NCBI GenBank assembly: GCA_020722945.1
Contig: DYJV01000003.1
Location: 1,846 to 65,845, forward strand
Origin: Candidatus Methylomirabilis sp.
GTDB taxonomy: Bacteria > DYJV01
DNA: 64,000 bases
Direction: 5' to 3'
In this document: piece after piece, positions 376 to 30,694 of the stretch
Position numbering within the stretch: the stretch's first letter is position 1
Layout: each line of letters opens with the position of its first letter
Position numbers and translations under genes: made by a program
The notes under the pieces: model-generated
Told to the model about the DNA's origin: nothing
What the model saw: only the letters and a program-made list of their open reading frames with translations
The model's database searches: none

Positions 376-3300
376 ATGGATTACAACAAAGGGATAGTAG
401 AGGATTATTACAAAAGTAGGAATTACCTTAAAGCACTTTCATACATCGAAAAATTTCTCCGTCAAAATCCTGACAATTTTGAACTAAATAATGACTATGG
501 CCTTATATACACTCTTGTATACGGTTTTGAAGCAGGAGTTGGCTACCTAAAAAAATCTATAGATTTAAAAAAAGATAATCTTGAAGCTATAACCAACATT
601 GTTGAGATATATATTCAGAATAATCTTCCATTTTCTGCTATCAAAATACTCGAAACAAGTGATATTTCTAATTATCCAAATCTTAAAGAGAAACTAAATT
701 TTCTCAAGAAAAATTTTACTCCTGAAAAAGTTTCTTTCTATATACCTGTTTATAATGTTGAAAAATATATAGTAAATTGTCTTAACGCTATATTTAATCA
801 AAGTTATCCAATACATGAAGTCATTATAGTTGATGATTCCTCTCCAGATAATTCAATTTCTAAAATCAAAGAGTTTATTGATAAATATGGTGACAAAATA
901 AAGATACTTACTCATGATACCAATAGAGGACTTGCTGCTGCACGTAATAGTGCACTCCAAAATGCAACAGGAGATTATCTCGCTACTGTTGATACTGATG
1001 CTCTCCCTGAAGAGACTTTCCTCGAGAGTATTATGATGGAGTTTTTTAAGAATAAATATGATAAAAAATTAGCAGGGATAGGTGGTAAACTTTTAGAGGC
1101 AAACTCCTTATCTCTCACTGATAGATGGCGTGAAGTTCATATGAAGCAGCATTGGGGTGACAAAAATATAGATAACCCAGAATTTTTATTTGGTAGCACA
1201 TCAGTTTATAAGATTTCTGCTTTAAAAGAGATTGGTGGTTTCAACGAATCATACAAGACAAATTATGAAGATTGCGATTTAGCTATCAGACTTAAAAAAT
1301 CAGGATACAAAATCTCTTACATAGCAAATGCAAAAGCTGTTCATTTAAGGAGTGACAATCTTTTATCTCTGATTACCACTTACTACAATTGGGTTGCTGC
1401 TCCATACAAAGGGAAATTAACATCTTTTGAATCTATAAAAGATAAACATGAATTTACATTCAATATCTTATCCAAATTTACAACTCAAGATATTTCAAAT
1501 AAAAGGTTTCATCTTCTTTATCCAGAATTTTTTTCAGCTCTTTTTTGGGTTATAAAAGATCTTGTCAACTCAGATATAGACTTTGAAGAGAAGATAGATA
1601 CTGCTTACGCTTTATCTGGAGTTATATTTTACGGATTAAATCAAAACCTTAATATCTCAGATAAACTAAAAGATTTTATATATCAAGATACTGAAAGATT
1701 CACAGATCTGCTCCAAATTAAGAAGAAAGTTTCAGAGATAGCATCTATCAAGTCAGACGATCCAAATTATATATCCTTAGCAATAGGAAGAAATTTTCCA
1801 AAAGCCAATATACAACTAATATCCTCTGTTGGTGCTACAATCTCAAAGTTTTTGGCATTTGAGCCTATGCTATACAAAATGATTGAGGTCTCAAGAGTCA
1901 GGATCGAGTATGAAGAGAATTTGGAAAATCAATCTCCAAATAAGCAAAGTAAAATTTTACTCCTAAATCTCCCTTGGAGAGATGGAACAAGATATGGGAT
2001 AAGGGCAGGTTCAAGATGGCCATTCACTAATGAAGTTCCTCAGGAAAATTGGCAAATACCACCAAGTTATGTGCCATACCCTTTTTTCCTTGGCTATGCG
2101 ACATCAATATTAAAAGAGGATGGATTTACGACTCATTTTATAGATGCTATTGCAGAAGGTGTTCTTGATGAGGAATTTTTTCAGAGGGTTAAAGGGGTCT
2201 CTCCAGATATTATATTTATAGAAACAGCTACAGCATCGATATACAACGACATAAATTATGTCCGTAAGTTAAAAACTTTCTTACCAGACTCTAAAATTAT
2301 TTTTTCAGGGACACACGTTTCATACTTTAAAGATAAATTTTTACAAGAGTATCCTTGTGTAGATGGGATAATAGTAGGAGAGATTGAACAAACTGCTCTT
2401 AAAATTGCACAATACTTTGAAAAACATCATAACTTTGAAGGATTTAATGAGAAAGGGTTTATGTTTTACGACAAAAATTCTTTAATATCGGGGAGTAGTG
2501 ATAGAGGAGAATTGGTTGAAATTGACAAATTACCACTTCCAGAAAGATTGACTACACCTGTTTATAATTATGAAGATCTTTTTGCAGGGATGCTTTTCCC
2601 TTCACTACAAATTCATTCAACAAGGGGTTGTCCATTTGGATGTATATACTGTGTTTGGCCTCAAGTATTGTATCAAAGCAGAAGTTATAGGACAAGGGAC
2701 CCAATCAAAGTTGTAGATGAGATAGAAGAGATGATAAAAATTTATGGATACAAATCTTTCTATTTTGATGACGACACCTTCAATATAGGGAAAGAGAGAA
2801 TTTTAAAAATATGTGAAGAGATAAAGAGAAGGGGTCTTGATAAAATACCTTGGAGTGCAATGTCAAGAGCTGACACATCAGATTTTGAAACATTAAAAGC
2901 AATGAAAGATGCTGGATTGGTATCGATAAAATTTGGAGTTGAATCTGCAACGCAACAGCTTGTAGATGCTTGCGGGAAGGGACTTGACTTAAACAAAGTT
3001 GAAGAGTCTGTGAGATATTGTCAAGAGCTTGGTTTAAAATACCATCTCACATTTACATTTGGACTACCTGGGGAAACAAAAGAGACAATCGAAAAATCCA
3101 TTCAATACTCATTTGAGTTGAATCCTGATACATGTCAGTTTTCACTTACCACCCCATTTCCAGGCACCAAACATTTTGATATGGCAAAAGAGAAAGGGCT
3201 GCTCCTTACAGAGGAGTGGGACAAATATGATGGGAATAGATACACTGTAATGAGAGGAGAGAATCTTACAAGAGAAGAGCTCGAGGGAGCAGTAAAAGAT

Positions 3301-4542
3301 GCCTACCAAAGATGGGACGAATTTGACAGAAAGAGAAAAGGAGCTAAATCTAAAGATCTAAGCAAATTCAAAAAACCATCTATATGTTACGACAAGAGAA
3401 ATCTAAAAGTGATTTTTGTATGCCAAGATGGATATGATCTTGCTCCTGCAAGGGTCAGATGCTACAATTTTTCAAAAGAGCTCAATAAACTTGGTATCAA
3501 AAGTGAAGTTTTGTCATTTTATGATAATTTGAAAGCCTCTGACCAAGTGGGGCCATGTGAAAATATGTCAGATTATGAGAAACTGAAATTAAATATTAAG
3601 GCCTACGAAAAACTTAAAGATGAGAAAAATGCAATTTTTTATGTTCAGAAATCTGGTTATCACTTTTTAGCTCCATATCTTGTAGCAGAAGAGAATGGGA
3701 ATAAAATAATTTTCGATTACGATGATTTTGATCTCGGATGTTACCCTTTCCAGAATTTACACAAATTTATACCATCCCTTTCTCCTGACAAATTATTTGA
3801 AGATTTGGTAAAAAAGAGTGAAATATGTATCGGCTCAAGTAAATTTCTTGTTGATCTTATGGCAAAACATAATCATAATTCCCACTATATAGTCACAGGC
3901 GTTGATATGGATAAATTTAATTATGGCAATAACAATAAAGAGAGTAATGGAACTGTAGAGATAATATGGATGGGGCATGTATGGTCATCAGATATCTTTA
4001 AAAGTTTACTTTACTGTGTTACAAATTATTTATCTATTGATAAAGAAGCAATAGATAAAAGCAGGCTCAACCTTATACTTTTCGGGACTTATAGTAAGGT
4101 TCTTGAAGAGAGTATTAAAAAATATACACCCAAATTATGCAACAGTAAGATAGTTTTTCATTCTAAAAAAGCACCTGACGAAATACCTAATATATTGAAC
4201 AAAACAGATATAGGTCTTGCTCCACTTGATACATCAAACCCATTTACAACTATGTTTAATAAATCAAAGAGCCCTACTAAAGTTTTTGAATATATGGCTT
4301 GTAAGGTTGCAGTTATTGGGACAAAGATAGGTGAAATTGAAAATCTTATAACCGATGGAAATAATGGCTATCTATTCAATAATCAAAACGAAGTTGAATT
4401 TAAGGAGAAATTAACCAAATTAATACTTGATGATAATATGAGGAGAGAGTTTCAGAACAGAGCTTACAAAAAAGTAAAAGAACATTTTTCACTTGAATCT
4501 ATAGGTAAGAAATTGGCAAAAATAATTTATTCTAATGTATAA
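376..4542 (+). CDS. Multidomain fusion: TPR + GT2 glycosyltransferase + B12-binding radical SAM + GT4 glycosyltransferase
   Basis: TPR-like N-terminus. GT2 motifs IPVYNVE, VDDSSPD, NRGLAAARN, VDTD, YEDCDL. Radical SAM TRGCPFGCIYC, YFDDDTF, FGVES, TPFPGT preceded by a B12-binding-like segment. C-terminal GT4 KSPTKVFEYMACKVAVIGT. SD AGGGGG. Confidence 0.85.
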   Translation: MDYNKGIVEDYYKSRNYLKALSYIEKFLRQNPDNFELNNDYGLIYTLVYGFEAGVGYLKKSIDLKKDNLEAITNIVEIYIQNNLPFSAIKILETSDISNYPNLKEKLNFLKKNFTPEKVSFYIPVYNVEKYIVNCLNAIFNQSYPIHEVIIVDDSSPDNSISKIKEFIDKYGDKIKILTHDTNRGLAAARNSALQNATGDYLATVDTDALPEETFLESIMMEFFKNKYDKKLAGIGGKLLEANSLSLTDRWREVHMKQHWGDKNIDNPEFLFGSTSVYKISALKEIGGFNESYKTNYEDCDLAIRLKKSGYKISYIANAKAVHLRSDNLLSLITTYYNWVAAPYKGKLTSFESIKDKHEFTFNILSKFTTQDISNKRFHLLYPEFFSALFWVIKDLVNSDIDFEEKIDTAYALSGVIFYGLNQNLNISDKLKDFIYQDTERFTDLLQIKKKVSEIASIKSDDPNYISLAIGRNFPKANIQLISSVGATISKFLAFEPMLYKMIEVSRVRIEYEENLENQSPNKQSKILLLNLPWRDGTRYGIRAGSRWPFTNEVPQENWQIPPSYVPYPFFLGYATSILKEDGFTTHFIDAIAEGVLDEEFFQRVKGVSPDIIFIETATASIYNDINYVRKLKTFLPDSKIIFSGTHVSYFKDKFLQEYPCVDGIIVGEIEQTALKIAQYFEKHHNFEGFNEKGFMFYDKNSLISGSSDRGELVEIDKLPLPERLTTPVYNYEDLFAGMLFPSLQIHSTRGCPFGCIYCVWPQVLYQSRSYRTRDPIKVVDEIEEMIKIYGYKSFYFDDDTFNIGKERILKICEEIKRRGLDKIPWSAMSRADTSDFETLKAMKDAGLVSIKFGVESATQQLVDACGKGLDLNKVEESVRYCQELGLKYHLTFTFGLPGETKETIEKSIQYSFELNPDTCQFSLTTPFPGTKHFDMAKEKGLLLTEEWDKYDGNRYTVMRGENLTREELEGAVKDAYQRWDEFDRKRKGAKSKDLSKFKKPSICYDKRNLKVIFVCQDGYDLAPARVRCYNFSKELNKLGIKSEVLSFYDNLKASDQVGPCENMSDYEKLKLNIKAYEKLKDEKNAIFYVQKSGYHFLAPYLVAEENGNKIIFDYDDFDLGCYPFQNLHKFIPSLSPDKLFEDLVKKSEICIGSSKFLVDLMAKHNHNSHYIVTGVDMDKFNYGNNNKESNGTVEIIWMGHVWSSDIFKSLLYCVTNYLSIDKEAIDKSRLNLILFGTYSKVLEESIKKYTPKLCNSKIVFHSKKAPDEIPNILNKTDIGLAPLDTSNPFTTMFNKSKSPTKVFEYMACKVAVIGTKIGEIENLITDGNNGYLFNNQNEVEFKEKLTKLILDDNMRREFQNRAYKKVKEHFSLESIGKKLAKIIYSNV

Positions 4543-12912: not shown

Positions 12913-14991
12913 CTAATTTTTTGAATCAAGATACTTTTGAATATGCTTGAAACCTTCAACTTTTACTTTATCGTAATAGTATTTAAAATTATTCTCTTTG
13001 TATATTTTATCCTCATAACTATTGTGACAAAATATACACTTACCGACTCTTAATATTTTGATAATATCCTCACTATTAAATACTTTGAAATTTTCATTCG
13101 AAAGACTCTGATACTGTATCTTACCATCATGGGACACAATGCTCTCAAACGGGAAATCAACATTAACTCCAGAGCTTTTGATATCGTAGATAGGTTTGAA
13201 GATTATTGTATCATTGTCAGCAAGCTCAAGATACCCCTTCCCAAGACCAACTGCCATAGGATTGTTGTGACAGTCATGACATCTTTTGCTCAATTTTGTT
13301 ACAGTGTGAGGTTGGACCGGTGCAACCGCAAATGAAGTAGTATTGTCATCATGTATAAAAACTTTATTATCAAAATTCTTATCTGGAAAAGTCAACTGGC
13401 TTTGGCAAAACTGCATTGGTGAAATTTTACCCTTTGAATTAATTCCCAGGACAGTATCCTCAAACCTAGTATAACTCCTATATTCATACCACATACCCAT
13501 ACTTTTGAAACCTGTAAGGAAATCTCGCTGAGAAAAATTTGGATTGTAACCTATATGGCAACCGTAACAGAGAGGTGTCCATTTGAAATGACATGTATAA
13601 CACTCAAAATTTTTGTTACACTGATTGGTCTTGTGTTTTGGGTCATTGCTAATAGTTTTTATTTCAAGTTTCTTATCACTTATCTTTGTAAAGAGGTAAA
13701 TTTTGTTACCTTCCCTCTTGATATGACTTAGAATACTACCTTTTTTATTTTTTAGAAGCTGATCATTTATATTTATATTATCAAAACTACTTATCAAATC
13801 ATCTCTTAAACTTGATACATCATAAAATTCAGGTTTATTTTTGTAATCACCATGGCAATCTTCGCATCTAATCTCAACCACCTGCTCCATTTTGTCATAA
13901 ATCAGACCATCACCCATAATATCATTGGATGTATGACAATCTATACACTCCATCCCTTTTTGAAAATGAACATCAGCTCCCATGTGAAAAAAATTTCTCC
14001 CACCCATCAGCTCATTTTCCGAAAGAGATCCTTGACTGTAGGGTGTCCCATAAAAATCGTTTTCCATAATCCCTACGTATGATGTTCCATATCTATTGCT
14101 TCTGTTGTGACAGTGAAGACATTGGCTGGTAGGAATTTTTTTGGTCATTTTGTGAAAGGTTGGATGCCCCTCCTCGCCTCTATCAATTGTAGGATCATCA
14201 CCCTTATATTTACTGCTGTTATCATATAGGACATGGCAAGCCGAACAACCAGATGAATGATTGCTCGTAGAGTTGGGATTATTAGCCCCTATATGACACA
14301 TACTACAAAATTTTCTAAAATGACTATCTGCTATCTCCCCAGATACTTCATACTCGTCTTGGTAAGATGGTGGAATATCATCTTTGCTGTAAAAAGGGAC
14401 TCGCTTCAGAACCCTACCCTTTTTATCCTCTATATTGTTTGTAGCATAAATAGCAGATTTACTCTTTTGAGAATTCCATTGATACCTAAGATCTGCAATT
14501 ACACCACCCATAGAGAACATAAGGGAAGTCTCTACCCTCTTGATATCATTGTCGTGGCAATCCTTTGTCCCACAGGACTTATTAACAAATTTCATGTCAG
14601 AGGGATTCCTTTTGCCAATCAAACCTTTATGGGCATCATCTTTTTTTATAGAAAGAGGGTCTCCACCATGACATACTATACATCCAAAAACATTTATAGG
14701 ATGGGATTCGCTAATCTCTTCTATTCCAATATGGCATGTTATACAATACTCCTCCCTCTTCCATTTGGATACATAGATACCCCTCTTTTCAATTTTGAAG
14801 TTTCTAAAATTTTCAATATCTTTTAGGATAGCTTCATCTTTACTCTTTTGATACTGAATTTGAAGTTTCTCTATTTTATCTCTCTTATAACGCTTCTGAT
14901 ACTTTTTCCAATCAGAGTAAGGGTCAAAATAGTAAACAGCAATAAGGGTCAAAGATAGTAGAAATATAAGTATATGCAGCAGTCTATTCAT
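12913..14991 (-). CDS. Membrane-anchored multiheme cytochrome c (11 CxxCH + 1 CX4CH)
   Basis: N-terminal hydrophobic anchor. CITCH, CIVCH, CSMCH, CSACH, CLHCH, CIDCH, CEDCH, CYTCH, CYGCH, CHDCH, CIFCH, plus CGTKDCH. Confidence 0.9.
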   Translation of the reverse strand: MNRLLHILIFLLSLTLIAVYYFDPYSDWKKYQKRYKRDKIEKLQIQYQKSKDEAILKDIENFRNFKIEKRGIYVSKWKREEYCITCHIGIEEISESHPINVFGCIVCHGGDPLSIKKDDAHKGLIGKRNPSDMKFVNKSCGTKDCHDNDIKRVETSLMFSMGGVIADLRYQWNSQKSKSAIYATNNIEDKKGRVLKRVPFYSKDDIPPSYQDEYEVSGEIADSHFRKFCSMCHIGANNPNSTSNHSSGCSACHVLYDNSSKYKGDDPTIDRGEEGHPTFHKMTKKIPTSQCLHCHNRSNRYGTSYVGIMENDFYGTPYSQGSLSENELMGGRNFFHMGADVHFQKGMECIDCHTSNDIMGDGLIYDKMEQVVEIRCEDCHGDYKNKPEFYDVSSLRDDLISSFDNININDQLLKNKKGSILSHIKREGNKIYLFTKISDKKLEIKTISNDPKHKTNQCNKNFECYTCHFKWTPLCYGCHIGYNPNFSQRDFLTGFKSMGMWYEYRSYTRFEDTVLGINSKGKISPMQFCQSQLTFPDKNFDNKVFIHDDNTTSFAVAPVQPHTVTKLSKRCHDCHNNPMAVGLGKGYLELADNDTIIFKPIYDIKSSGVNVDFPFESIVSHDGKIQYQSLSNENFKVFNSEDIIKILRVGKCIFCHNSYEDKIYKENNFKYYYDKVKVEGFKHIQKYLDSKN

Positions 14992-15053: not shown

Positions 15054-15791
15054 TTACATATACAATCCACCATTAATATGGTAAACTTGCCCTGTAATAT
15101 AATCTGAATTTTCATCAAGTAGAAAAGATACTACTCTTGCAACTTCCTCTGCTTTTCCTAATCTTTTCATAGGGATTTTACTCCTAACTTTATCAAGAGC
15201 CTCAGGTGGAACTTTGGCAACCATCTCTGTTTCGATAAAACCGGGTGCAACTGCATTTACAGTGATATTTTTTTGAGCAAGCTCAAGTGCAAGAGATTTG
15301 GTCAAACCAATTACTCCGGCTTTTGAAGCAGCATAGTTACTTTGACCAATATTTCCTGAAGCAGCAATTATAGAACTTATGTTGATTATCCTACCCCATC
15401 CATTTGCCATCATATAATCAAGAGAAGCTTTTATGCAGTAAAAACTCCCAAAAAGATTAACCTGAATAACCCTTATCCACTCTTCAAGGCTCATCTTTAT
15501 AACAGTTTTGTCGTGGGTGATACCAGCATTATTAATCAGAATATCAATTTTACCATACTTTTCAACAAGTGCTTCAACAACATGTTTTACATCGTAAAAA
15601 TTTTCAACACTACCCTGAAATATTTCAGCTTCACCACCATTTCTTAATATCTCATCTTTTACTTCAAGAGCTTTATTTGTATCTCTATTGTATCCAATAC
15701 CAACAATTATACCCCTCTTTGCAATTTCAATAGATATAGCTTTACCAATACCTCTGGCAGCACCTGTAACTAAAGCAACATGTTTACCCAT
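15054..15791 (-). CDS. phaB: Acetoacetyl-CoA reductase (PhaB-like SDR)
   Basis: TGAARGIG, NNAGITHDKT, ISSII, GQSNYAASK, KSLALELA, PGFIETEMVAKVP, INGGLYM resemble Bacillus-type PhaB as recalled; FabG is not excluded. Confidence 0.7.
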   Translation of the reverse strand: MGKHVALVTGAARGIGKAISIEIAKRGIIVGIGYNRDTNKALEVKDEILRNGGEAEIFQGSVENFYDVKHVVEALVEKYGKIDILINNAGITHDKTVIKMSLEEWIRVIQVNLFGSFYCIKASLDYMMANGWGRIINISSIIAASGNIGQSNYAASKAGVIGLTKSLALELAQKNITVNAVAPGFIETEMVAKVPPEALDKVRSKIPMKRLGKAEEVARVVSFLLDENSDYITGQVYHINGGLYM

Positions 15792-22336: not shown

Positions 22337-22340
22337 AGTA

Positions 22341-22355
22341 AGGGGGGTTACCCCT
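22341..22355. terminator. Short hairpin between convergent cobQ and nitroreductase genes
   Basis: AGGGG-ggtta-CCCCT; weak 5-bp stem. Confidence 0.35.
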
Positions 22356-22361
22356 CACCTT

Positions 22362-22919
22362 TTAAAATTTTTTTACACCATAACTATCTTTATAGATGAA
22401 TTCAGAGATATCTTTTCTTGGTGGACATTTTGAATCAGCCGCTGGATAACCAATAGGTGTCATCGCAACAACAGCAATATTTTCAGGAAGATTAAGTATT
22501 TTCCCAGCTTGTTCAGCATCAAACAGACCTAATATAACTGTCCCCAGCCCCATACTATGTGCAGCAAGGCATAAAGTCTGCATAGCTATTCCAGCATCAT
22601 ACATATACCAATTGTCTCCCTTATTGGTCATAGGTTCACCCTTTTTAAAACCTGATTTACCTTTAATCCCAAGCTCAACTATCATAATAGGTGCCTCAGA
22701 ACATGCCTTTCTTGCAGGATTACCTTCAGGCATACTATTTATAAGCTTATCTTTTATATGTTTGTCTGTAACAAGAACAAATTCCCATACTTGAGTATTT
22801 GCCCATGATGGAGACATTTTTACAAGGTTAAATAGCTCTTTAAGGGTCTGTTCGGAAACTAAATCACTTTTATAACTCCTTATACTTCTTCTTGATAAAA
22901 TAGCTTCTTTCAAATCCAT
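22362..22919 (-). CDS. Nitroreductase family protein
   Basis: RRSIRSY, SPSWANTQVWEF, LAAHSMGLGT, PIGYP. Confidence 0.92.
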   Translation of the reverse strand: MDLKEAILSRRSIRSYKSDLVSEQTLKELFNLVKMSPSWANTQVWEFVLVTDKHIKDKLINSMPEGNPARKACSEAPIMIVELGIKGKSGFKKGEPMTNKGDNWYMYDAGIAMQTLCLAAHSMGLGTVILGLFDAEQAGKILNLPENIAVVAMTPIGYPAADSKCPPRKDISEFIYKDSYGVKKF

Positions 22920-22947
22920 ACTTGATCCTCCTCAAAAATTATAAATA

Positions 22948-24849
22948 TTAATTTTTATTTGATTTTTTACTATCAACTTCTTTATCCATGTAGATAGATT
23001 TGAAAAGCCATTCGTAATAATTATCCCTAAACTCTCTATAAGAGTCAAGTATTGTAACTATGTTGTTGGAAATTTTATTTTCAGATATTTTGAAAAAGTT
23101 CTTTTGATCAACTTTTTGCCTATTAATCTTGATATATTCAGAGATATATTCTACTGTCTTCATAAAAGGATTTATAGAATCAGAGAAAATCAATCTTGAA
23201 AATCTTGCAGGGTGAGTCCATTTGAAAAATTCTGCAGTATATTCGTTGCAGAAAGGTTTTATGAATGGTCTCATATAGTTTTCATAAAAATATTTATTTG
23301 CTTTGGATATAAAATTAACATACTCAAAATCCTCTTTATCGTAATCTAACTTTATATCTTCAAGATTTTTCTCTATAAATTCAACTTCAAATTGAGCTTC
23401 TGAAATGTTTTTATTGAATGTTTCACTCTTTATCTTCATTTCATACAAGCCAGGGGCAAGGTTTCTTATATTTTCGATATTTTCAATTATAGCTCTATGC
23501 TCTCTATTTGCCACCTTACCTGAAACAAAGATTCCGAGATGTCCTATATCAGGATGTATAAGATAAATTATTCTCTGCCCATTATTTTTAAGGTCTTCAG
23601 TAGTCTTATAAACTTCACTTATCCACTGTAAACCCTGCTCTGGAGGCGATATATTGTCACCCTCTGATGCAAATATCACAAAAGGTTCTTTTATTTTTCT
23701 CAAATCTATCTTTTCACCAAGTGGTGAAAGCATCTCACCCTTTTCAAGCTTGTTGCCAATAAAGAGATTATTTACGATAGCAACAATTTCACTCTCAGTA
23801 AAGAAATAGAATCCTGTCCACCATTTTTCAAATTCGAGGTAACGAGAATCCTCTTTATCAACATTATGAAAAACATTAAACTCTTTCTTCCAAAATGTAT
23901 TTGCAGGATTTAACATTTCAAAATTATAAACAAGCCATGCTCCATCAAATATGCCATTACTTAAATCTGAAATAAGCATTGAGAGCCATACTCCACCTGT
24001 CAATCCACCTGTAACTCTCATCGGATTGATTTTATCCCTACCAGCCCAGTAAGATAAAGGAGTCCCATTGATAACAAGAGGACCCGTAAGATCAGGTCTC
24101 GTTGCAGCAATCATTGAAACGATCCAGCCTGCCTGACAATTTGCATAAATAACTGGTGGATTATCAGGGTGTAAATCGTGCATTATATCAATGAATGTAA
24201 GGAGAGCCAATCCAACATCATCAAGAGTCTGACCGGGACAAGGCTCTGGAAAGAAACCTACTAAATAACATTGATGCCCCTCTTGCATTGCTATACCAGC
24301 TTCTGAATCTTTCTTAAAAGCACCAATCCCAGGTCCATGCCCTGCTCTTGGATCAAATATCATAATAGGTCTTTTATTAGGGTCTATTTCAACACCCTTG
24401 TCAGGAAGAATTTTGTAGAGGATAAAATTTGCTGGTCTTTCAAATCCTCTTGCATCCATAATCTCTTCATATTTGAAGTTAACAAGTGGTGGCATACCTT
24501 TTTGGTAATGATCAAGCATTATATTACCACGCTTTCTTAGAACATCAATAAAGAGAATGTATCTCTGACAATAATCAACAAAATAGTTAATAAACTCAAT
24601 ATAGTTATCAAAAATATCTTTAAATGAATCTGTAGAAATTTTGACATAATAATCTCTTAAAATTTTATCATTAAGAGGATTTTTGTCAATCTTATCAAGT
24701 AATAGTGCAACATCAGAAGGATTTTTGTAATCAATCTTTAGTTGTTTAAAAAGATCCTCAAAAAAATTGAGAAATTTCTTGTTGTTCGGTGAAAATAACT
24801 TATCTCCTATCTGAAACGGATTTAACTTGATAATTTCATTATTCAGCAT
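22948..24849 (-). CDS. DUF3141 family PHA-synthase-like alpha/beta hydrolase
   Basis: DPRAGHGPGIG, NCQAGW (Cys lipase box), PLSYWAG, SEGDNISPP (Asp), GHLGIFVS (His). Confidence 0.85.
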   Translation of the reverse strand: MLNNEIIKLNPFQIGDKLFSPNNKKFLNFFEDLFKQLKIDYKNPSDVALLLDKIDKNPLNDKILRDYYVKISTDSFKDIFDNYIEFINYFVDYCQRYILFIDVLRKRGNIMLDHYQKGMPPLVNFKYEEIMDARGFERPANFILYKILPDKGVEIDPNKRPIMIFDPRAGHGPGIGAFKKDSEAGIAMQEGHQCYLVGFFPEPCPGQTLDDVGLALLTFIDIMHDLHPDNPPVIYANCQAGWIVSMIAATRPDLTGPLVINGTPLSYWAGRDKINPMRVTGGLTGGVWLSMLISDLSNGIFDGAWLVYNFEMLNPANTFWKKEFNVFHNVDKEDSRYLEFEKWWTGFYFFTESEIVAIVNNLFIGNKLEKGEMLSPLGEKIDLRKIKEPFVIFASEGDNISPPEQGLQWISEVYKTTEDLKNNGQRIIYLIHPDIGHLGIFVSGKVANREHRAIIENIENIRNLAPGLYEMKIKSETFNKNISEAQFEVEFIEKNLEDIKLDYDKEDFEYVNFISKANKYFYENYMRPFIKPFCNEYTAEFFKWTHPARFSRLIFSDSINPFMKTVEYISEYIKINRQKVDQKNFFKISENKISNNIVTILDSYREFRDNYYEWLFKSIYMDKEVDSKKSNKN

Positions 24850-24858
24850 GTAACCCTC

Positions 24859-25149
24859 TTATTTTTTATTTGTTGTTTTGTCATCTAAAGAAACACTCTT
24901 CTGATATACAGAATCAATATACTCCAAACCTTTTAATACCATATTTTTGTAATCACTCAGAGCCATTTCAGAATTTTTTATCCACTCTTTGTAAACCTTT
25001 AATAAATTTTCTCTATATACTTCAGGCTGTTTCTGAATAAATATCTCTACAAATTTTAACTGCTGTTTGTTTATTAGGTTGAAGTTGTCCATGGATAAAG
25101 AGTAGAATAGTTTTATATTTTTAAAAAAGTTTTCATCATAGTTCATCAT
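24859..25149 (-). CDS. Putative phasin-like protein, paralog 4
   Basis: 96 aa amphipathic helical protein sharing DNFNLIN.Q...EW..NSE.AL.DY.NMV.KGL.YI with its neighbours. SD AGGAGG. Lies in the pha cluster. Confidence 0.6.
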   Translation of the reverse strand: MMNYDENFFKNIKLFYSLSMDNFNLINKQQLKFVEIFIQKQPEVYRENLLKVYKEWIKNSEMALSDYKNMVLKGLEYIDSVYQKSVSLDDKTTNKK

Positions 25150-25232
25150 AAACCTCCTAATATCTTAATAAAGGATATAAAGTAGAAATTTTATACCCAC
25201 ATATTCAATTAAAAATATCTGTTAGTCGTTCA

Positions 25233-25505
25233 CTACCTGTTAACATCAGAAATTGCTTTCTGGTATACAAAATCAATATACTCCAAACCTTTTATTACCA
25301 TATTTTCATAATCTGTGAGTGCTAACTCAGAATTTTCTATCCACTCTTTGTATATTTTGAGTAATCTCTCCCTATCCTTTTCAGGCTGCTCTTGAATAAA
25401 TAGCTCTACAAATTTTAGCTCTTGTCTATTTATGAGATTGAAGTTATCCATAGAAAGAGCATAAAATGACTTTCTGTTCATAAAGAAGTTTTTGTCATTG
25501 TTCAT
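25233..25505 (-). CDS. Putative phasin-like protein, paralog 3
   Basis: 90 aa; same motif; SD AAGGAGG. Confidence 0.6.
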   Translation of the reverse strand: MNNDKNFFMNRKSFYALSMDNFNLINRQELKFVELFIQEQPEKDRERLLKIYKEWIENSELALTDYENMVIKGLEYIDFVYQKAISDVNR

Positions 25506-25589
25506 ATTTAACCTCCTTAAATTAGAGTTAATATGATATTCAATAAACTTCTTATAAATAAAAAATTGTCAAATATCAGGTAAAATAGA

Positions 25590-25859
25590 CTATTTTTGTT
25601 TATCTACTGCTTTTTTATAAGAAGTCTCTATGTAGTCCAAACCTTTTAGAACCATATTTTTGTAATCATTAAGTGCTATTTCAGAATTTTTTGTCCACTC
25701 CTGATAAATTTTTAATAAGTTGTCTTTGTAAGCATCAGGCTGAGTCTTTATAAAAAATTCGACCATCTGCTCCTGCTGCTTATTTATAAGATTAAAATTG
25801 TCGAGTGTAAGGTTGTAGTAATTCTTGATATTGTTAAAAAAATTGTCGTTGATCTCCAT
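25590..25859 (-). CDS. Putative phasin-like protein, paralog 2
   Basis: 89 aa; same motif; SD AAGGAG. Confidence 0.6.
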   Translation of the reverse strand: MEINDNFFNNIKNYYNLTLDNFNLINKQQEQMVEFFIKTQPDAYKDNLLKIYQEWTKNSEIALNDYKNMVLKGLDYIETSYKKAVDKQK

Positions 25860-25876
25860 ACTCGTCTCCTTATTTA

Positions 25877-26137
25877 TTAAACTTTCATGTTTTTTGTAAA
25901 TACTTCATTAAGATTGTCTAAACCTTTTAGAACAACATCTTTAAACATATCCAAACCCTTTTCAGTAGAAGTTACCCATTCGTTGTAAACTGACATCATA
26001 TAATCTGAATTTGGGACTTTACTGTTCTTAAGCATCATTTCAAAAATATTTTTCTGCTGCTCTGTAAGCATTTTAAAATTTTCAAAAGCCAACTCATAAA
26101 CATTTTTTAAATTAACAAACATATTCTCTGTTCCCAT
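25877..26137 (-). CDS. Putative phasin-like protein, paralog 1 (most divergent)
   Basis: 86 aa; ENFKML.EQQ...YNEW...VVLKGLD aligns with the other three; SD AGGAGG; directly follows phaC. Confidence 0.58.
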   Translation of the reverse strand: MGTENMFVNLKNVYELAFENFKMLTEQQKNIFEMMLKNSKVPNSDYMMSVYNEWVTSTEKGLDMFKDVVLKGLDNLNEVFTKNMKV

Positions 26138-26155
26138 GTTAAAACCTCCTATTTT

Positions 26156-27208
26156 TTATTTTAAAGAATGCTCAAATATCCATTTCCCCACAGATGGTGC
26201 TAACTCTTTCTGAGATTTTGAACTTACATATAATCCTATATGCCCACCCTTAAACGATAACATAGTCTTATCTTTTGAAGATACTAAATCGTTTAAAGGT
26301 TTTGTAGATGCAGGTGGGACAAGATGATCTTGCTCTGCATATATTGTAAGTAGTGGCATTGAAATATTTTTTAAATTCACTTTCCTTCCATTTAGAGTAA
26401 ATTCACCCTTTACAAGCTTATTACCCTGATAAAGATCTTTTAAGAACTTTCTATATGCTTCACCTGCTTGTGCAGGACTATCAAATATCCACTTCTCCAT
26501 TCTTAAAAAATTTTTTATATCTTCAACTGAAGTGGTATCCTTGACAAAATTGTAATATTTTTCAAAATTAAGCTGAAAAGGTTTAAGCATCAGATAACCA
26601 ATATTCATAAAATCACCAGAAACATTACCAGAAGAATCAACTAAGGCATCAATATCTATATATTTTGACCATACATTTAGAAGACCATCCTCAACATCAA
26701 AATCAACAGGAGTAACCATAGTAACAAGATTTTTTATCTTTTCAGGATATAAAGCTGAATAGATAACAGAGAACGTCCCACCTTGACAAACACCAAGAAG
26801 GTTGATCGCATCAAGTTTATGCTTATCTCTTAGGTAATCAACGCAATTGTTAATAAACCCATCTATATAGTCTTCCATAGTGAGGTATCTGTCAGCTCTT
26901 TCTGGGTATCCCCAATCTATTATATAGATATCTAATCCTTGGTCAAGAAGTCTCTTTATGAAACTTTTATCAGCTTGAAGATCCATCATATAATATTTGT
27001 TGACAAGGGCATATACAATAAGAAGCGGAGGGTGTGGCTTTTGGGAATCTTTGTTCTGGTCGTAATGATAAAGTTTGACATTACCAAATTCAAGTTCTGT
27101 GCTTTTTGGAGTAGGCTGAACATCTATTGTATCAATATTTTTCATATCATTCATAAGATTAAATAATTTATAGTTGATATCAAGAATATCATTAGTAAAA
27201 TTAATCAC
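26156..27208 (-). CDS. phaC: Class III poly(R)-hydroxyalkanoate synthase subunit PhaC
   Basis: PLLIVYALVN.YYMMDLQ, IDWGYP, LGVCQGG, FLRMEKWIFDSPAQAGE, QDHLVPP, GGHIG; 350 aa. Confidence 0.95.
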   Translation of the reverse strand: MINFTNDILDINYKLFNLMNDMKNIDTIDVQPTPKSTELEFGNVKLYHYDQNKDSQKPHPPLLIVYALVNKYYMMDLQADKSFIKRLLDQGLDIYIIDWGYPERADRYLTMEDYIDGFINNCVDYLRDKHKLDAINLLGVCQGGTFSVIYSALYPEKIKNLVTMVTPVDFDVEDGLLNVWSKYIDIDALVDSSGNVSGDFMNIGYLMLKPFQLNFEKYYNFVKDTTSVEDIKNFLRMEKWIFDSPAQAGEAYRKFLKDLYQGNKLVKGEFTLNGRKVNLKNISMPLLTIYAEQDHLVPPASTKPLNDLVSSKDKTMLSFKGGHIGLYVSSKSQKELAPSVGKWIFEHSLK

Positions 27209-27211
27209 TGA

Positions 27212-28183
27212 TTACTCCTCCATTTTTGTTTTCTTTACAGATTTTGCTTTTGCATCTGTAGGGACTTCACCTTTTAAAGTTTTTATAATATCTTTTAGTT
27301 CTTTAATCTCTTTTCTTATCTCCTGATTATCTTGTTTAACAATGTAAAGCTCTTTGTAAGCTCTGTCAAGTTCTGTTTTGGTAGCAATATTGGAATCCTT
27401 TAGGACTTCGTAGGTGTATCTATCAAGGGATAATTTTAGTTTGGAGCCTGCTTTTACAAGCTCTCCAAGTGTAGAGCCAAAATCTTTACTTTTAAAAAAA
27501 CTATGAAAAACAGATTCATTTTTGTTTACCCATTTTTTAAAAAATTCATCAAAATTTTCTATATTAGGATGTTTGATAATTTCATTAATAAAATCTTGGA
27601 ACCCTTTTTCAGATTCTTTGTTTATGATTGCTTTAAACTTCTCAACATTCCCCATATAAGCTTTAAAATCTTCAACAATATTTTTTATCATATCATTATA
27701 CTCCCTCGTCAAACCTATTGAAGGGAGCTTCAACATATCATCAAAAAATTCAAAATTAACTTTTGAGAAATTATTGAGAACACCAAGATTACTTTCACTA
27801 TTCTCAATAAAAAACTTTAAATTATTATAGATATTCATATCTGAAAAAGGTTTTGTAAAATCATTAAATACTTTTTCAGGAGTCAAATCAGAGAGGTTGA
27901 ATATCTTAAGAACTATATCATTATAATTTTTCTGAAAATTTTTGAATAAATTCTGATAATCAAAAACATCAAGTTTATTTTCTCTTTTAAAAAAAGCATC
28001 ATTGAAGTTTTTATAGAAACTAAATAGGTCTGTGTATACTTGTGTCCCTTTATCTATCTGAAAATAAGGGGTAAACATATCTCTCTGTATTGACGAAAGA
28101 TCAAAGTATTTATAGTTGTTTGGTTTAAAAGAATTTTGCCACATTTCAAAAAACTTTTTCTGCATTTCCGTAAAATTGTCCAT
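27212..28183 (-). CDS. phaE: Class III PHA synthase subunit PhaE
   Basis: LPSIGLTREY, FFKKWVNKNE, NIATKTELDRAYKEL followed by a coiled coil; immediately upstream of phaC. Confidence 0.88.
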   Translation of the reverse strand: MDNFTEMQKKFFEMWQNSFKPNNYKYFDLSSIQRDMFTPYFQIDKGTQVYTDLFSFYKNFNDAFFKRENKLDVFDYQNLFKNFQKNYNDIVLKIFNLSDLTPEKVFNDFTKPFSDMNIYNNLKFFIENSESNLGVLNNFSKVNFEFFDDMLKLPSIGLTREYNDMIKNIVEDFKAYMGNVEKFKAIINKESEKGFQDFINEIIKHPNIENFDEFFKKWVNKNESVFHSFFKSKDFGSTLGELVKAGSKLKLSLDRYTYEVLKDSNIATKTELDRAYKELYIVKQDNQEIRKEIKELKDIIKTLKGEVPTDAKAKSVKKTKMEE

Positions 28184-28266
28184 TGTGAAACCTCCCTTGT
28201 TGTAAAAGAAATTTTAATGAGTAAAATAAAGTATTTGAAAAAGGTATAGAATATAAGAATTAATAA

Positions 28267-28295
28267 TTTATAAAGAAATTGTAAATATTTTGCAA
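28267..28295 (-). promoter_or_regulatory. Candidate sigma70 promoter for phaEC
   Basis: TTGCAA-17 bp-TATAAA on the minus strand. Confidence 0.4.
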
Positions 28296-28297
28296 AA

Positions 28298-29059
28298 TCA
28301 TAATCTCAAACCACCATCTACTTCTATAGTTCTGCCATTAACATAGTCATTTTTAATAATAAAAAATAAAGTATCTGATATCTCTTTTTTATCTGCAAAC
28401 CTATCAGCAGGTATTGTCTTTTTGATTTTTAGTTTTATAGTTTCTGGGATAAACTCTGTCATCTCTGTATCAACATACCCTGGAGCAATAGCAACTGACC
28501 GTATCTTGTATGGTGCAAGTTCCTTTGCCCATACAACAGTCATTGCAGCTACACCTGCTTTTGAAGCAGTATAATTACTCTGTCCAAGATTTCCAACTCT
28601 CGATATAGAAGATATTGATACAATTACCCCATGTTTATTGAATTTAACCATTTGAAAAGCAGCTTCTCTCGCACATAAAAATACACCTGTAAGATTGACA
28701 TCTATAACCTTCTTCCACTTCTCAAAAGGCATTCTTACAATATTGCCGTTTTTATCGGTTTTCACCATAAAAGAATCAGCAGTAACCCCACTATTGTTTA
28801 CAGATATATCTACCCCAGAATACTTTTCAGCAACAGACTCATAAAAGTTTATTACATCATATTCAAGGCTTACATCAGCAACATAAGAGTCTACACTTAC
28901 ACCCTCTTTTTCAAAAAAAATTTCAGCATCGTGAAGATTTTTCTTACTTATGTCACATATAGATACTTTTGCACCTGCTTTGGCAAGATCTAATGCAAAT
29001 TGTCGTCCAAGTCCCCTTGCACCCCCTGTAACAATAGCTATTTTATTATTAATATTCAT
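28298..29059 (-). CDS. SDR oxidoreductase, 3-oxoacyl-(ACP/CoA) reductase-like
   Basis: TGGARGLG, NLTGVFLCAREAA, GQSNYTASK, WAKELA, EVDGGLRL. Start placed at ATG 29059 after GGAG. Confidence 0.85.
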   Translation of the reverse strand: MNINNKIAIVTGGARGLGRQFALDLAKAGAKVSICDISKKNLHDAEIFFEKEGVSVDSYVADVSLEYDVINFYESVAEKYSGVDISVNNSGVTADSFMVKTDKNGNIVRMPFEKWKKVIDVNLTGVFLCAREAAFQMVKFNKHGVIVSISSISRVGNLGQSNYTASKAGVAAMTVVWAKELAPYKIRSVAIAPGYVDTEMTEFIPETIKLKIKKTIPADRFADKKEISDTLFFIIKNDYVNGRTIEVDGGLRL

Positions 29060-29231
29060 TACCATTATCTCCAAAAAAAACATCCATTACTATTCTATAA
29101 GTAATAATAACAAGAATAGAAGTCAAGAGATATTTAATAAATTAATTAAAATTAATCACTAATTTTAGAGATAATCAAGTAATTACAAGAAAATATAAAG
29201 AAAAAAATCAGATGATAATTTAGATTGAAAT

Positions 29232-29258
29232 AAAAAAGCGGAGCAAAATGCTCCGCTT
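29232..29258 (-). terminator. Intrinsic terminator after the porin gene
   Basis: AAGCGGAGCA-aaa-TGCTCCGCTT stem with a minus-strand T tract. Confidence 0.88.
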
Positions 29259-29281: not shown

Positions 29282-30694
29282 TTAGAAATTGTATCTTACC
29301 CTTGCAGTTGATACAAATATATCCTCATCTGCATTGCCATCTTTGTCAGATTCCCAATAATCCATAGCATCTCCTGCGAATAAATAACCTGCATTTATTG
29401 CAAATTCAAGATTATCGTATAGTTTGTATTTTACATAAGCATTGACTTCAAGACCAAGTGCATCATCACTCTGAGACTTGCCATTGTTGTCTTTATACTC
29501 AAGGTCTTCAGCAAGCATCATATATAAAAGACCACCACCAATTGTAGTCTTTTTAGAAGTTTTCCATGCAAATAAAAGTTCATTCATTATGAAACCTTTG
29601 TCTCCAATGTATGGGGTCTCTACAAAATAATCATCATCTGTATAAGGTCCCTCCATCAAGACAACACTATCAAATGTATCAACATCAACTGCCATATATC
29701 CATTGAAATCTGAATCATCAGAATCATCATCACCAGATGCATACCAGAATCTGTAAGTTAATTTCATATCACAGCAGAAATTATAACCTAAATCTAAACG
29801 AGCAAACCATGCATTTAGGTCATAGTTATCATCTGGAGCTGTATTACCAAGGTAATCTTTGTATGAAACTTTATCTACACTTCCACCCTGATAAATAAAA
29901 TCAAATCCTCCAAAAAAATTACCAGATTTGAAATCTCCACCAAGACCTATTGTGAATATGTCAAGCTCTGCAGCTTTCATTAGTTTAGCTTCATACCATT
30001 CACCCTGTTTTGCACTAACTCCAACAAGCTCAGAGCCACCATCGAGGTTTTTAAATAGATAATCAGCCCAAATATTCATTTTGAAATTGTCAGCAGGTTT
30101 GAAATCTACCTTAGCATAGATAGAATCAAGACTTGTAGTATCATCATTCTTTTTCACTGATCTGTATTCATCCCCTCTTGTCCATCCAAAAATAAAATTT
30201 GAACCACTAAGACCACCATAAAGTTGAACACCCATTTGAGTTTCTTCCCAGAAATATTTGTTTAGTTTGAGAGGGAAAAGACCCATTTTAACACCAAGTT
30301 TATCATTCCATGGAAGTTTGAAATCAGTATACAACCATCTTGTTTCGATGTTTACAGCATCACCAGAGAAACCACCACCTGCACTTTTACCAACGCTTCC
30401 ACCTGCACCATACTCAAGAGCTCCCCACTCTGCTGCATATACACCTTTTACTTTGCCATTGTTAGTAGAGAAATCTGCCCAAAGTCTATACTTTGCCTCA
30501 CCCCATAAATTGGTAACACTACCATCTTCAAGAGGTCCACCACCAGAACCATTAAACCACTCATCATGATTGCTGCCCAGCATAAATCTGTTGTTAAAAT
30601 CGCCATGCACTTGCATGTCAGCAGCAGAAACAAGAAGTGGAGTAACAGCCAAAGAAACAACTGCTAATAGAAAAAACAATACTCTTTTCATCAC
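29282..30694 (-). CDS. Outer-membrane beta-barrel porin (deltaproteobacterial-type)
   Basis: Signal peptide (VSA-AD), alternating aromatic beta strands, YASGDDD, C-terminal RYNF, strong SD and its own terminator. Confidence 0.8.
   Translation of the reverse strand: MMKRVLFFLLAVVSLAVTPLLVSAADMQVHGDFNNRFMLGSNHDEWFNGSGGGPLEDGSVTNLWGEAKYRLWADFSTNNGKVKGVYAAEWGALEYGAGGSVGKSAGGGFSGDAVNIETRWLYTDFKLPWNDKLGVKMGLFPLKLNKYFWEETQMGVQLYGGLSGSNFIFGWTRGDEYRSVKKNDDTTSLDSIYAKVDFKPADNFKMNIWADYLFKNLDGGSELVGVSAKQGEWYEAKLMKAAELDIFTIGLGGDFKSGNFFGGFDFIYQGGSVDKVSYKDYLGNTAPDDNYDLNAWFARLDLGYNFCCDMKLTYRFWYASGDDDSDDSDFNGYMAVDVDTFDSVVLMEGPYTDDDYFVETPYIGDKGFIMNELLFAWKTSKKTTIGGGLLYMMLAEDLEYKDNNGKSQSDDALGLEVNAYVKYKLYDNLEFAINAGYLFAGDAMDYWESDKDGNADEDIFVSTARVRYNF

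Follow-up and report, generated by a model that had tools for sequence, protein, structure and literature searches.

A predicted class III polyhydroxyalkanoate synthesis operon with a rare family of small proteins and a PhaC-related DUF3141 enzyme in an uncultured, low-GC bacterium

The window analyzed here is a 64,000-nucleotide stretch of contig DYJV01000003.1 (assembly GCA_020722945.1, positions 1,846 to 65,845), deposited as Candidatus Methylomirabilis sp. It contains a run of nine co-oriented minus-strand open reading frames (ORFs), spanning nucleotides 22362 to 29083, which, judged from family membership and gene order, is very probably a class III polyhydroxyalkanoate (PHA) synthesis operon. 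The bacterium is uncultured, has a low GC content and belongs to a small, isolated order. In the direction of transcription the run comprises genes for a FabG-like short-chain dehydrogenase/reductase (SDR; 28298-29059), the PHA synthase subunit PhaE (27212-28183), the catalytic subunit PhaC (26156-27208), four small proteins designated S1 (25877-26137), S2 (25590-25859), S3 (25233-25505) and S4 (24859-25149), a PhaC-related alpha/beta-hydrolase of the Pfam family DUF3141 (22948-24849) and, as the final and loosely linked member, a nitroreductase-family protein (22362-22919; PF00881, 99.3 bits versus a cut-off of 23.5). The gaps from phaE to the DUF3141 gene are 3, 18, 17, 84, 83 and 9 bp; 114 bp separate the SDR gene from phaE, and 28 bp lie between the DUF3141 and nitroreductase genes. 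An earlier note on this DNA had described the same nine genes, and their coordinates, order and gaps were reproduced exactly from the list of ORFs.

The SDR reading frame is open to nucleotide 29083, but translation probably starts at 29059, since the equivalent methionine begins the SDRs of related genomes and a GGAGA sequence is found 9 nucleotides upstream. Ribosome-binding sites of the AGGAG type precede each of the small ORFs (AGGAGG for S1 and S4, AAGGAG for S2) as well as the DUF3141 gene. A terminator-like hairpin at 29236-29258 on the minus strand, between a porin gene and the SDR gene, possesses a 10-pair stem with six GC pairs followed by a run of T residues and is likely to be the upstream limit of the transcription unit. 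A weaker hairpin with a 5-pair stem is located 3' of the nitroreductase gene (22340-22355, minus strand). Both are matches to a consensus only, and five such sites were seen against 3.2 expected.

PhaC scored 475.1 bits against the class III model TIGR01836 (cut-off 365.3) and contains the nucleophile box GVC141QGG, of the form G-x-C-x-G, together with D294 and H323. Comparison with the solved catalytic domain of the Cupriavidus PhaC (5hz2) gave an E-value of 1.6e-22 and brought all three catalytic motifs (nucleophile, Asp and His) into register. PhaE, encoded 3 bp upstream of phaC, reached 77.3 bits against PF09712 (cut-off 25.7) but matched TIGR01834 over its C-terminal half only, with 60.2 bits versus a cut-off of 154.95; since the Pfam model recognizes it and the NCBIfam model does not, we regard it as a divergent PhaE. 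Family membership shows these two proteins to be the predicted partners of a class III PHA synthase. Loci of this class, encoding PhaE and PhaC, occur in Allochromatium vinosum and Desulfococcus multivorans. The window resembles them in the adjacency of phaE and phaC and in having a PhaC of about 350 amino acids that carries both the G-x-C-x-G box and the Asp/His pair; it differs in the divergence of its PhaE, in the first gene of the operon, which encodes a FabG-like SDR and not a typical PhaB, in the lack of a linked thiolase, and in the two to four small genes of an unnamed family which follow phaC and are in turn followed by DUF3141.

The SDR belongs to a FabG-like subfamily (NF006072, 314.6 bits versus a cut-off of 298) and falls below the cut-offs for FabG itself (TIGR01830, 219 versus 297.75 bits) and for the acetoacetyl-CoA reductase PhaB (TIGR01829, 159.2 versus 302.1 bits). 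An SDR gene leads the operon in all five relatives from the same order, the products being 58-64% identical to that of the window. A second SDR in the window (15054-15791, minus strand) barely passed the FabG equivalog model (298.5 versus 297.75 bits) and is likely to be the housekeeping FabG. The presence of this separate equivalog suggests that the operon SDR is a dedicated paralog; it is probably an (R)-3-ketoacyl-CoA reductase, analogous to PhaB. The class III PhaEC locus put forward in the earlier note is therefore supported by the family scans, and a dedicated FabG-like reductase can be added to it.

The order to which the window belongs consists of two families, represented by the window's genome and those of five other species. 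All six genomes are metagenome-assembled and uncultured, and the next sampled relatives share only the domain. Two genomes from the window's own family (G001 and G003) have the arrangement SDR-PhaE-PhaC-A-B-DUF3141-nitroreductase, where A and B are the two types of small protein described below. The third (G002) is the same through DUF3141, after which a YgjP-like gene is found and no nitroreductase, and both genomes of the sister family (G004 and G005) contain SDR-PhaE-PhaC-A-B only. The conserved core, present in 5/5 relatives, is SDR-PhaE-PhaC-A-B, and in the three members of the window's own family DUF3141 directly follows the small genes. Because the gene order is repeated in all five other genomes at 34-77% protein identity, the arrangement reflects more than chance. 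In the sister family, genes for a PhaR of 114-122 amino acids, possessing only a PHB_acc_N domain (74.6 and 83.8 bits), are located upstream of the operon and divergent from it (L024:2673-3017 and L025:4519-4887). A second SDR gene lies beside this phaR, sharing the orientation of the operon in G004 and diverging from it in G005.

The four small proteins (86, 89, 90 and 96 amino acids for S1 to S4, respectively) are true paralogs with 26-71% mutual identity. The proportion of nonsynonymous differences (pN) is far below that of synonymous differences (pS) in 6/6 pairs, which indicates purifying selection; for S3 and S4 the values are pN 0.16 and pS 0.69, with a dN/dS of about 0.10. Since synonymous sites are near saturation while pN remains far below pS, the copies are old and constrained. 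When the four paralogs and 33 relatives from databases were placed in a maximum-likelihood tree, two clades separated with support of 97/89, namely A (S1) and B (S2, S3 and S4); within B, S3 pairs with S4 (100/94), and S2 joins them only weakly (91/30). Based upon these clades, the array represents an ancient A/B pair in which B has been locally tripled. Both types co-occur in 6/6 genomes of the order, and S1 shares 57-61% identity with the product of the first small gene after phaC in G001, G003 and G004 and 37-41% with that in G002 and G005. The previous description of the four genes as paralogs is upheld by these data, and the genes are placed where phasin genes often sit.

The small-protein family is very rare. 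Among 5.8 billion proteins, 33 were found at E<=1e-3 (1496 candidates scored), and an exhaustive HMMER search of 1.84 billion proteins gave 19 cluster representatives at E<=1e-3, 12 of them at E<=1e-10; a wider profile adds proteins from metagenome-assembled genomes labelled "Deltaproteobacteria bacterium". No member found carries a precomputed Pfam domain, S1 to S4 have no Pfam or NCBIfam family match, and 20 members gave no meaningful NCBIfam match. The family is characterized by the invariant pattern E-W and K-G-L-D/E-Y. In a profile search of 401 sampled genomes it was recovered from the six genomes of the order (E<=1e-27), and the sole confident match beyond the order was in G192 (E 3.6e-10). 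This is an 87-residue protein encoded 470 bp upstream of a PhaE-PhaC pair, the PhaE scoring 121 bits against PF09712 and the PhaC being 55% identical to that of the window. Six further matches were weak (E 5e-5 to 9e-3) and mostly within long ORFs; those in G086, G132, G221, G261 and G356 were read as chance, as were weak matches in 615- and 616-residue ORFs of the phosphoenolpyruvate-utilising type in G004 and G005. A marine metagenome contig (L027) encodes PhaE, PhaC, an ORF of 85-105 amino acids, a 610-amino acid ORF and then a C-terminal fragment of a small-family protein, about 2.3 kb downstream of PhaE-PhaC. The fragment is in frame and directly follows the stop codon of the 610-amino acid ORF (L027:5165-7160); it may represent a decayed gene, read-through or an assembly join. 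A protein search with the 86-amino acid ORF 3' of phaC on this contig matched only that ORF itself.

Phasins control the size of PHA granules and are used as tags and surfactants. Like the known phasins (PF09361, PF05597 and PF09602), the small proteins are of about 10 kDa, are predicted to be helical (Atlas models; predicted local distance difference test scores 0.71-0.75), are encoded beside phaC and other PHA genes and occur as multiple paralogs; unlike them, they form a family separate in sequence, with its own E-W / K-G-L-D/E-Y pattern and a fixed A/B pair. Among distant members, P0050 and P0051 have Phasin_2 as their best Pfam match (E 2e-4, 21.9 versus 24.9 bits, and E 5.5e-3, respectively) and the G192 protein has Phasin PF05597 (E 7.5e-3), all sub-threshold. 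The named look-alikes of S1 and S2 in a protein language model are the PHB_acc, Phasin_2, PhaE and PhaP_Bmeg clusters (0.81-0.87), which serve as leads only. The same holds for the structural look-alikes, which include phasin clusters but also the helical hairpins RRF, WXG100 and Acb2/Tad1, as short helical hairpins reach high template-modelling scores against many folds. On balance, their context and similarities suggest that the small proteins are granule-associated or phasin-like.

Several observations weigh against this assignment. S1 to S4 gave no match at E<=0.01 to the Pfam phasin models PF09361, PF05597, PF09602 and PF09650; among the Pfam matches listed for 25 family members, no phasin match to the window paralogs appeared at E<=1, and none was found among NCBIfam models at E<=0.5. 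The helical hydrophobic moment is approximately 1.5-2 standard deviations above that of shuffled sequences in S1 and S2 and not above it in S3 and S4. In G359, a weak small-family match has no PHA gene within 5 kb. The profile relationship detected by hhalign to residues 185-229 of PhaE is weak (E 0.0025, probability 11.8%), and nothing was found in the comparison of the family with DUF3141. Of the phasin-like array proposed in the earlier note, then, gene context and sub-threshold similarity stand, and a match of the window proteins to a phasin family does not.

The PhaE match keeps open a role as PhaE-like partners. Instead of structural phasins, the small proteins might be accessory or regulatory partners of PhaEC (activators, primers or PHB sensors, for instance), with A and B acting as a pair. 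Such a role would account for the constant company of A and B in 6/6 genomes; in addition, a stand-alone PHB_acc domain ranks as the closest named cluster in the language model (0.85-0.87), and the PhaR of the sister family carries a DNA-binding domain only. We nevertheless consider it rather unlikely, since all of the supporting similarities are sub-threshold, PF05233 is absent among the Pfam matches listed, and amplification to three B copies would be more typical of abundant structural proteins. Far less probable still is that these are generic helical hairpins, WXG100-like or similar, with no connection to PHA. One source labels a family member "YukE", P0052 weakly matches TIGR03930 (E 0.023), and the structural look-alikes include a WXG100 cluster. 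Against this, the small genes at every locus with readable context (the six genomes of the order, G192 and L027) lie next to phaE and phaC or at most about 2.3 kb from them; WXG100 (PF06013) is absent among the Pfam matches listed at E<=1 for 25 members; and in place of a W-x-G turn, the conserved Trp precedes x-x-N or x-x-T.

The remainder of the 98%-complete genome was searched for PHA genes. At least four full-length thiolase genes are present outside the window. The PHB_acc_N regulator was not found, and PHB_depo_C (PF06850) matched PhaC itself and nothing else. Phasin_2, Phasin, PHA_gran_rgn and PhaP_Bmeg gave no match, the blank for PhaP_Bmeg saying little as control genomes also had none. 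A Pfam scan of the 48 other ORFs in the window agrees with the earlier observation that it contains no phaA, phaR or phaZ. Given the thiolases and the absence of a PHB_depo_C match besides PhaC, synthesis is accounted for in this genome and mobilization is not.

The 633-amino acid DUF3141 protein matches PF11339 with 688.1 bits (cut-off 29.7) over profile positions 1-544 of 582. BLASTP aligns it with the PhaC of the window (E 3e-12, 26% identity over 231 residues) such that PhaC Cys141, Asp294 and His323 fall opposite Cys238, Asp398 and His437, which bears out both the Cys-Asp-His triad and the kinship to PhaC that had been noticed beforehand. Eleven DUF3141 proteins were aligned, namely that of the window, two from its order, one from the low-GC genome G124 and seven proteobacterial plasmid copies (35-48% identity). 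All 11 retain the triad motifs (the nucleophile in its N-C-Q-A-G box, the acid Asp and the His), and the motif D-P-R-A-G-H-G-P-G-I-G (residues 166-176) is kept in eight, being altered in Bradyrhizobium, Rhizobium phaseoli and G124. The proteobacterial proteins belong to the same Pfam family and share the NCQAGW, GDN and GHLG motifs; they differ in length, with five of the seven plasmid copies having about 740-800 amino acids and the other two 516 and 592.

Homology to the PhaC catalytic domain, with the triad aligned, would also be expected if DUF3141 were a second PHA synthase, acting alone or with PhaE and perhaps having another substrate range. PhaZ-type depolymerases have the same Cys-Asp-His triad, so this feature cannot separate a synthase from a depolymerase role. 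No solved relative of DUF3141 was found, the best match in the PDB being a PHA synthase (E 0.09); the sole NCBIfam match is to PHA_synth_I (E 0.0016), and the accessible part of a classification paper groups DUF3141 with a Cys-Asp-His PHA synthase cluster (PMC11878206). On the other hand, where PhaC has a His directly after its catalytic Asp (EQDH), the DUF3141 proteins of the order have Asn (EGDN), and the aligned homologs have Asn, Thr or Ser, never His. The Pfam scan gave no PhaC_N match for DUF3141, its gene and phaE are not linked in the sister family, and the proteobacterial copies described below are accompanied by pta, ackA and fabI and not by monomer-supply genes. We therefore think a second synthase improbable, and less likely than a mobilizing role.

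DUF3141 is uncommon and was detected in 7/401 sampled genomes, comprising 6/6 of the order and 1/395 others. The latter, G124, also carries two PhaC genes and PhaR. Its PHA region (G124:C10:20000-38000, L052) encodes, in order, PhaR, a 127-amino acid ORF, PhaC, an SDR, an alpha/beta-hydrolase, a 102-amino acid ORF with a weak match to the C-terminus of PhaE, and the second PhaC; it gives the impression of two synthases accompanied by very small partner subunits. A Phasin_2 search of 41 relatives of G124 gave three matches. The plasmid collection PLSDB contains 180 records with a DUF3141 homolog, of which seven contexts were inspected. In three (Azospirillum, Ralstonia and Sinorhizobium; L036, L037 and L038), DUF3141 heads a conserved run in which phosphate acetyltransferase and acetate/propionate kinase come next; the Azospirillum Pta is fused to an enoyl-CoA hydratase, and FabI is next in the Ralstonia and Sinorhizobium contexts. 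This run suggests an acyl-CoA-to-ATP route linked to DUF3141, and an enzyme yielding acyl-CoA, for example a thiolytic depolymerase, would fit such operons. Two alpha/beta-hydrolases of Ralstonia eutropha, A0671 and B1632, which were reportedly found on granules of poly(3-hydroxybutyrate) (PHB), may also belong to the DUF3141 family.

In the literature, the accessible text of a study of Pseudomonas islands places DUF3141 beside class I phaC, phaR, phaP and phbB and describes one island type which also has eutD, ackA and fabI (10.1101/2025.03.12.642780); the window differs in that DUF3141 stands behind a class III phaEC. Elsewhere, as far as the available portions of the papers extend, the domain is called PhaC-like or likened to Abhydrolase_1 (10.1101/693432; PMC8601165), and one DUF3141 protein is listed as "phaZ" (PMC8050969). 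These portions report no enzymatic activity for the domain.

A number of points count against a PHA-mobilizing function of DUF3141. In 2/2 genomes of the sister family it is unlinked from phaEC, being found on other contigs among unrelated genes, and it is therefore not an obligate part of the module. Four of the seven plasmid contexts have neither PHA nor pta-ackA genes nearby, and phaC is within 6 kb of DUF3141 in none of the seven, with the reservation in both cases that the PLSDB gene tables are incomplete. Searches of the window's genome with tblastn did not find pta or ackA, so that the reasoning drawn from proteobacterial pta-ackA operons is not directly transferable. No match at E<=0.01 to the PhaZ models TIGR01849 and PF06850 was obtained, and PHA production by the organism is itself a prediction from genes alone.

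These data modify two claims of the earlier note. That the locus holds two polyester-active enzymes, one of them a second synthase-like protein, is not borne out by the plasmid relatives (beside pta-ackA-fabI genes in 3/7, beside phaC in 0/7), and a complete granule-building module is not supported, given the thiolases encoded elsewhere and the separate location of DUF3141 in the sister family. The phaE-phaC-small ORF-DUF3141 synteny proposed there as a check holds for the core in 5/5 relatives and, as regards linkage of DUF3141, in the window's own family only.

DUF3141 could, on the same grounds, be a general acyl-thioester enzyme with no PHA role which became a chance neighbor of phaEC in one family; its unlinked position in both sister-family genomes and the four plasmid contexts devoid of PHA or acyl-CoA genes would then be explained. 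We consider this quite unlikely, for DUF3141 is present in 6/6 genomes of a PHA-encoding order versus 1/395 others, that one (G124) having PhaC, and it directly follows the small genes in the window, with a gap of 9 bp, and in 3/3 relatives of the family. Its position beside phaC, phaR and phaP in Pseudomonas, in the accessible text cited above (10.1101/2025.03.12.642780), also argues for a connection. From its sequence and distribution, DUF3141 is thus probably active in PHA metabolism; that it is specifically a depolymerase is a tentative proposal, to which we give somewhat less than an even chance.

Taken as a whole, the locus is best interpreted, with moderate confidence, as a PHA operon that encodes, besides a new family of phasin-like proteins, a Cys enzyme which is related to PhaC and possibly mobilizing. 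Thiolases encoded elsewhere would supply 3-ketoacyl-CoA, the operon reductase would convert this to (R)-3-hydroxyacyl-CoA, and PhaEC would polymerize the latter. The A and B proteins would coat the nascent polyester as phasin-like proteins of the granule surface, and DUF3141 would act on the same acyl-thioester or polyester chemistry, most likely as the mobilizing enzyme, either a CoA-dependent (thiolytic) or a hydrolytic depolymerase. The last step is proposed because there is no recognizable PhaZ in the genome and DUF3141 is the only unassigned PhaC-like enzyme. Like the PhaZa1-type PHB depolymerase (TIGR01849 / PF06850), it is a PhaC-related alpha/beta-hydrolase with a Cys nucleophile, but it matches neither of the models for that type. 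The PhaZa1-type enzyme was reportedly found by Uchino et al. in 2007 to release 3-hydroxybutyryl-CoA thiolytically.

A bolder version, which we regard as speculative and improbable as it stands, is that A and B constitute a fifth sequence class of phasins, belonging to the class III synthases of anaerobes and forming a heterodimeric coat, and that DUF3141 is a CoA-dependent PHA depolymerase. If so, the depolymerase would release hydroxyacyl-CoA, saving the thioester bond for ATP formation, and the same activity would also explain the proteobacterial DUF3141-pta-ackA-fabI operons.

Knowledge of PHA storage is good for aerobic Proteobacteria and much poorer for deep-branching uncultured anaerobes. 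With its compact and conserved set of genes, the locus lends itself to work on a putative new family of phasins, and it places DUF3141, which recurs in PHA gene clusters, in a clean genetic setting; were DUF3141 the mobilizing enzyme, genomes which have a synthase and no known depolymerase would have their missing step supplied. As the earlier note suspected, the architecture appears not to have been characterized: literature searches, which did not cover supplements, found no published description of the small-protein family or of this arrangement.

Other genes in the window may be mentioned briefly. Upstream of the operon, an outer-membrane porin-like protein (29282-30694, minus strand) matches the Desulfovibrio-type model NF033939 over its full length but below the cut-off (77.1 versus 250 bits), which supports a diderm envelope. 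A 692-amino acid multihaem c-type cytochrome (12913-14991, minus strand) resembles ExtM of the selenite/tellurite reduction operon (405.8 bits, below the cut-off of 800). An 838-amino acid malic-enzyme protein (56116-58632, minus strand) has its malic domains from residue 458, and its N-terminal 450 residues gave no Pfam match at E<=1e-5. Finally, a 1388-amino acid fusion protein (376-4542, plus strand) combines glycosyltransferases of families 2 and 1 with a B12-binding radical SAM domain.

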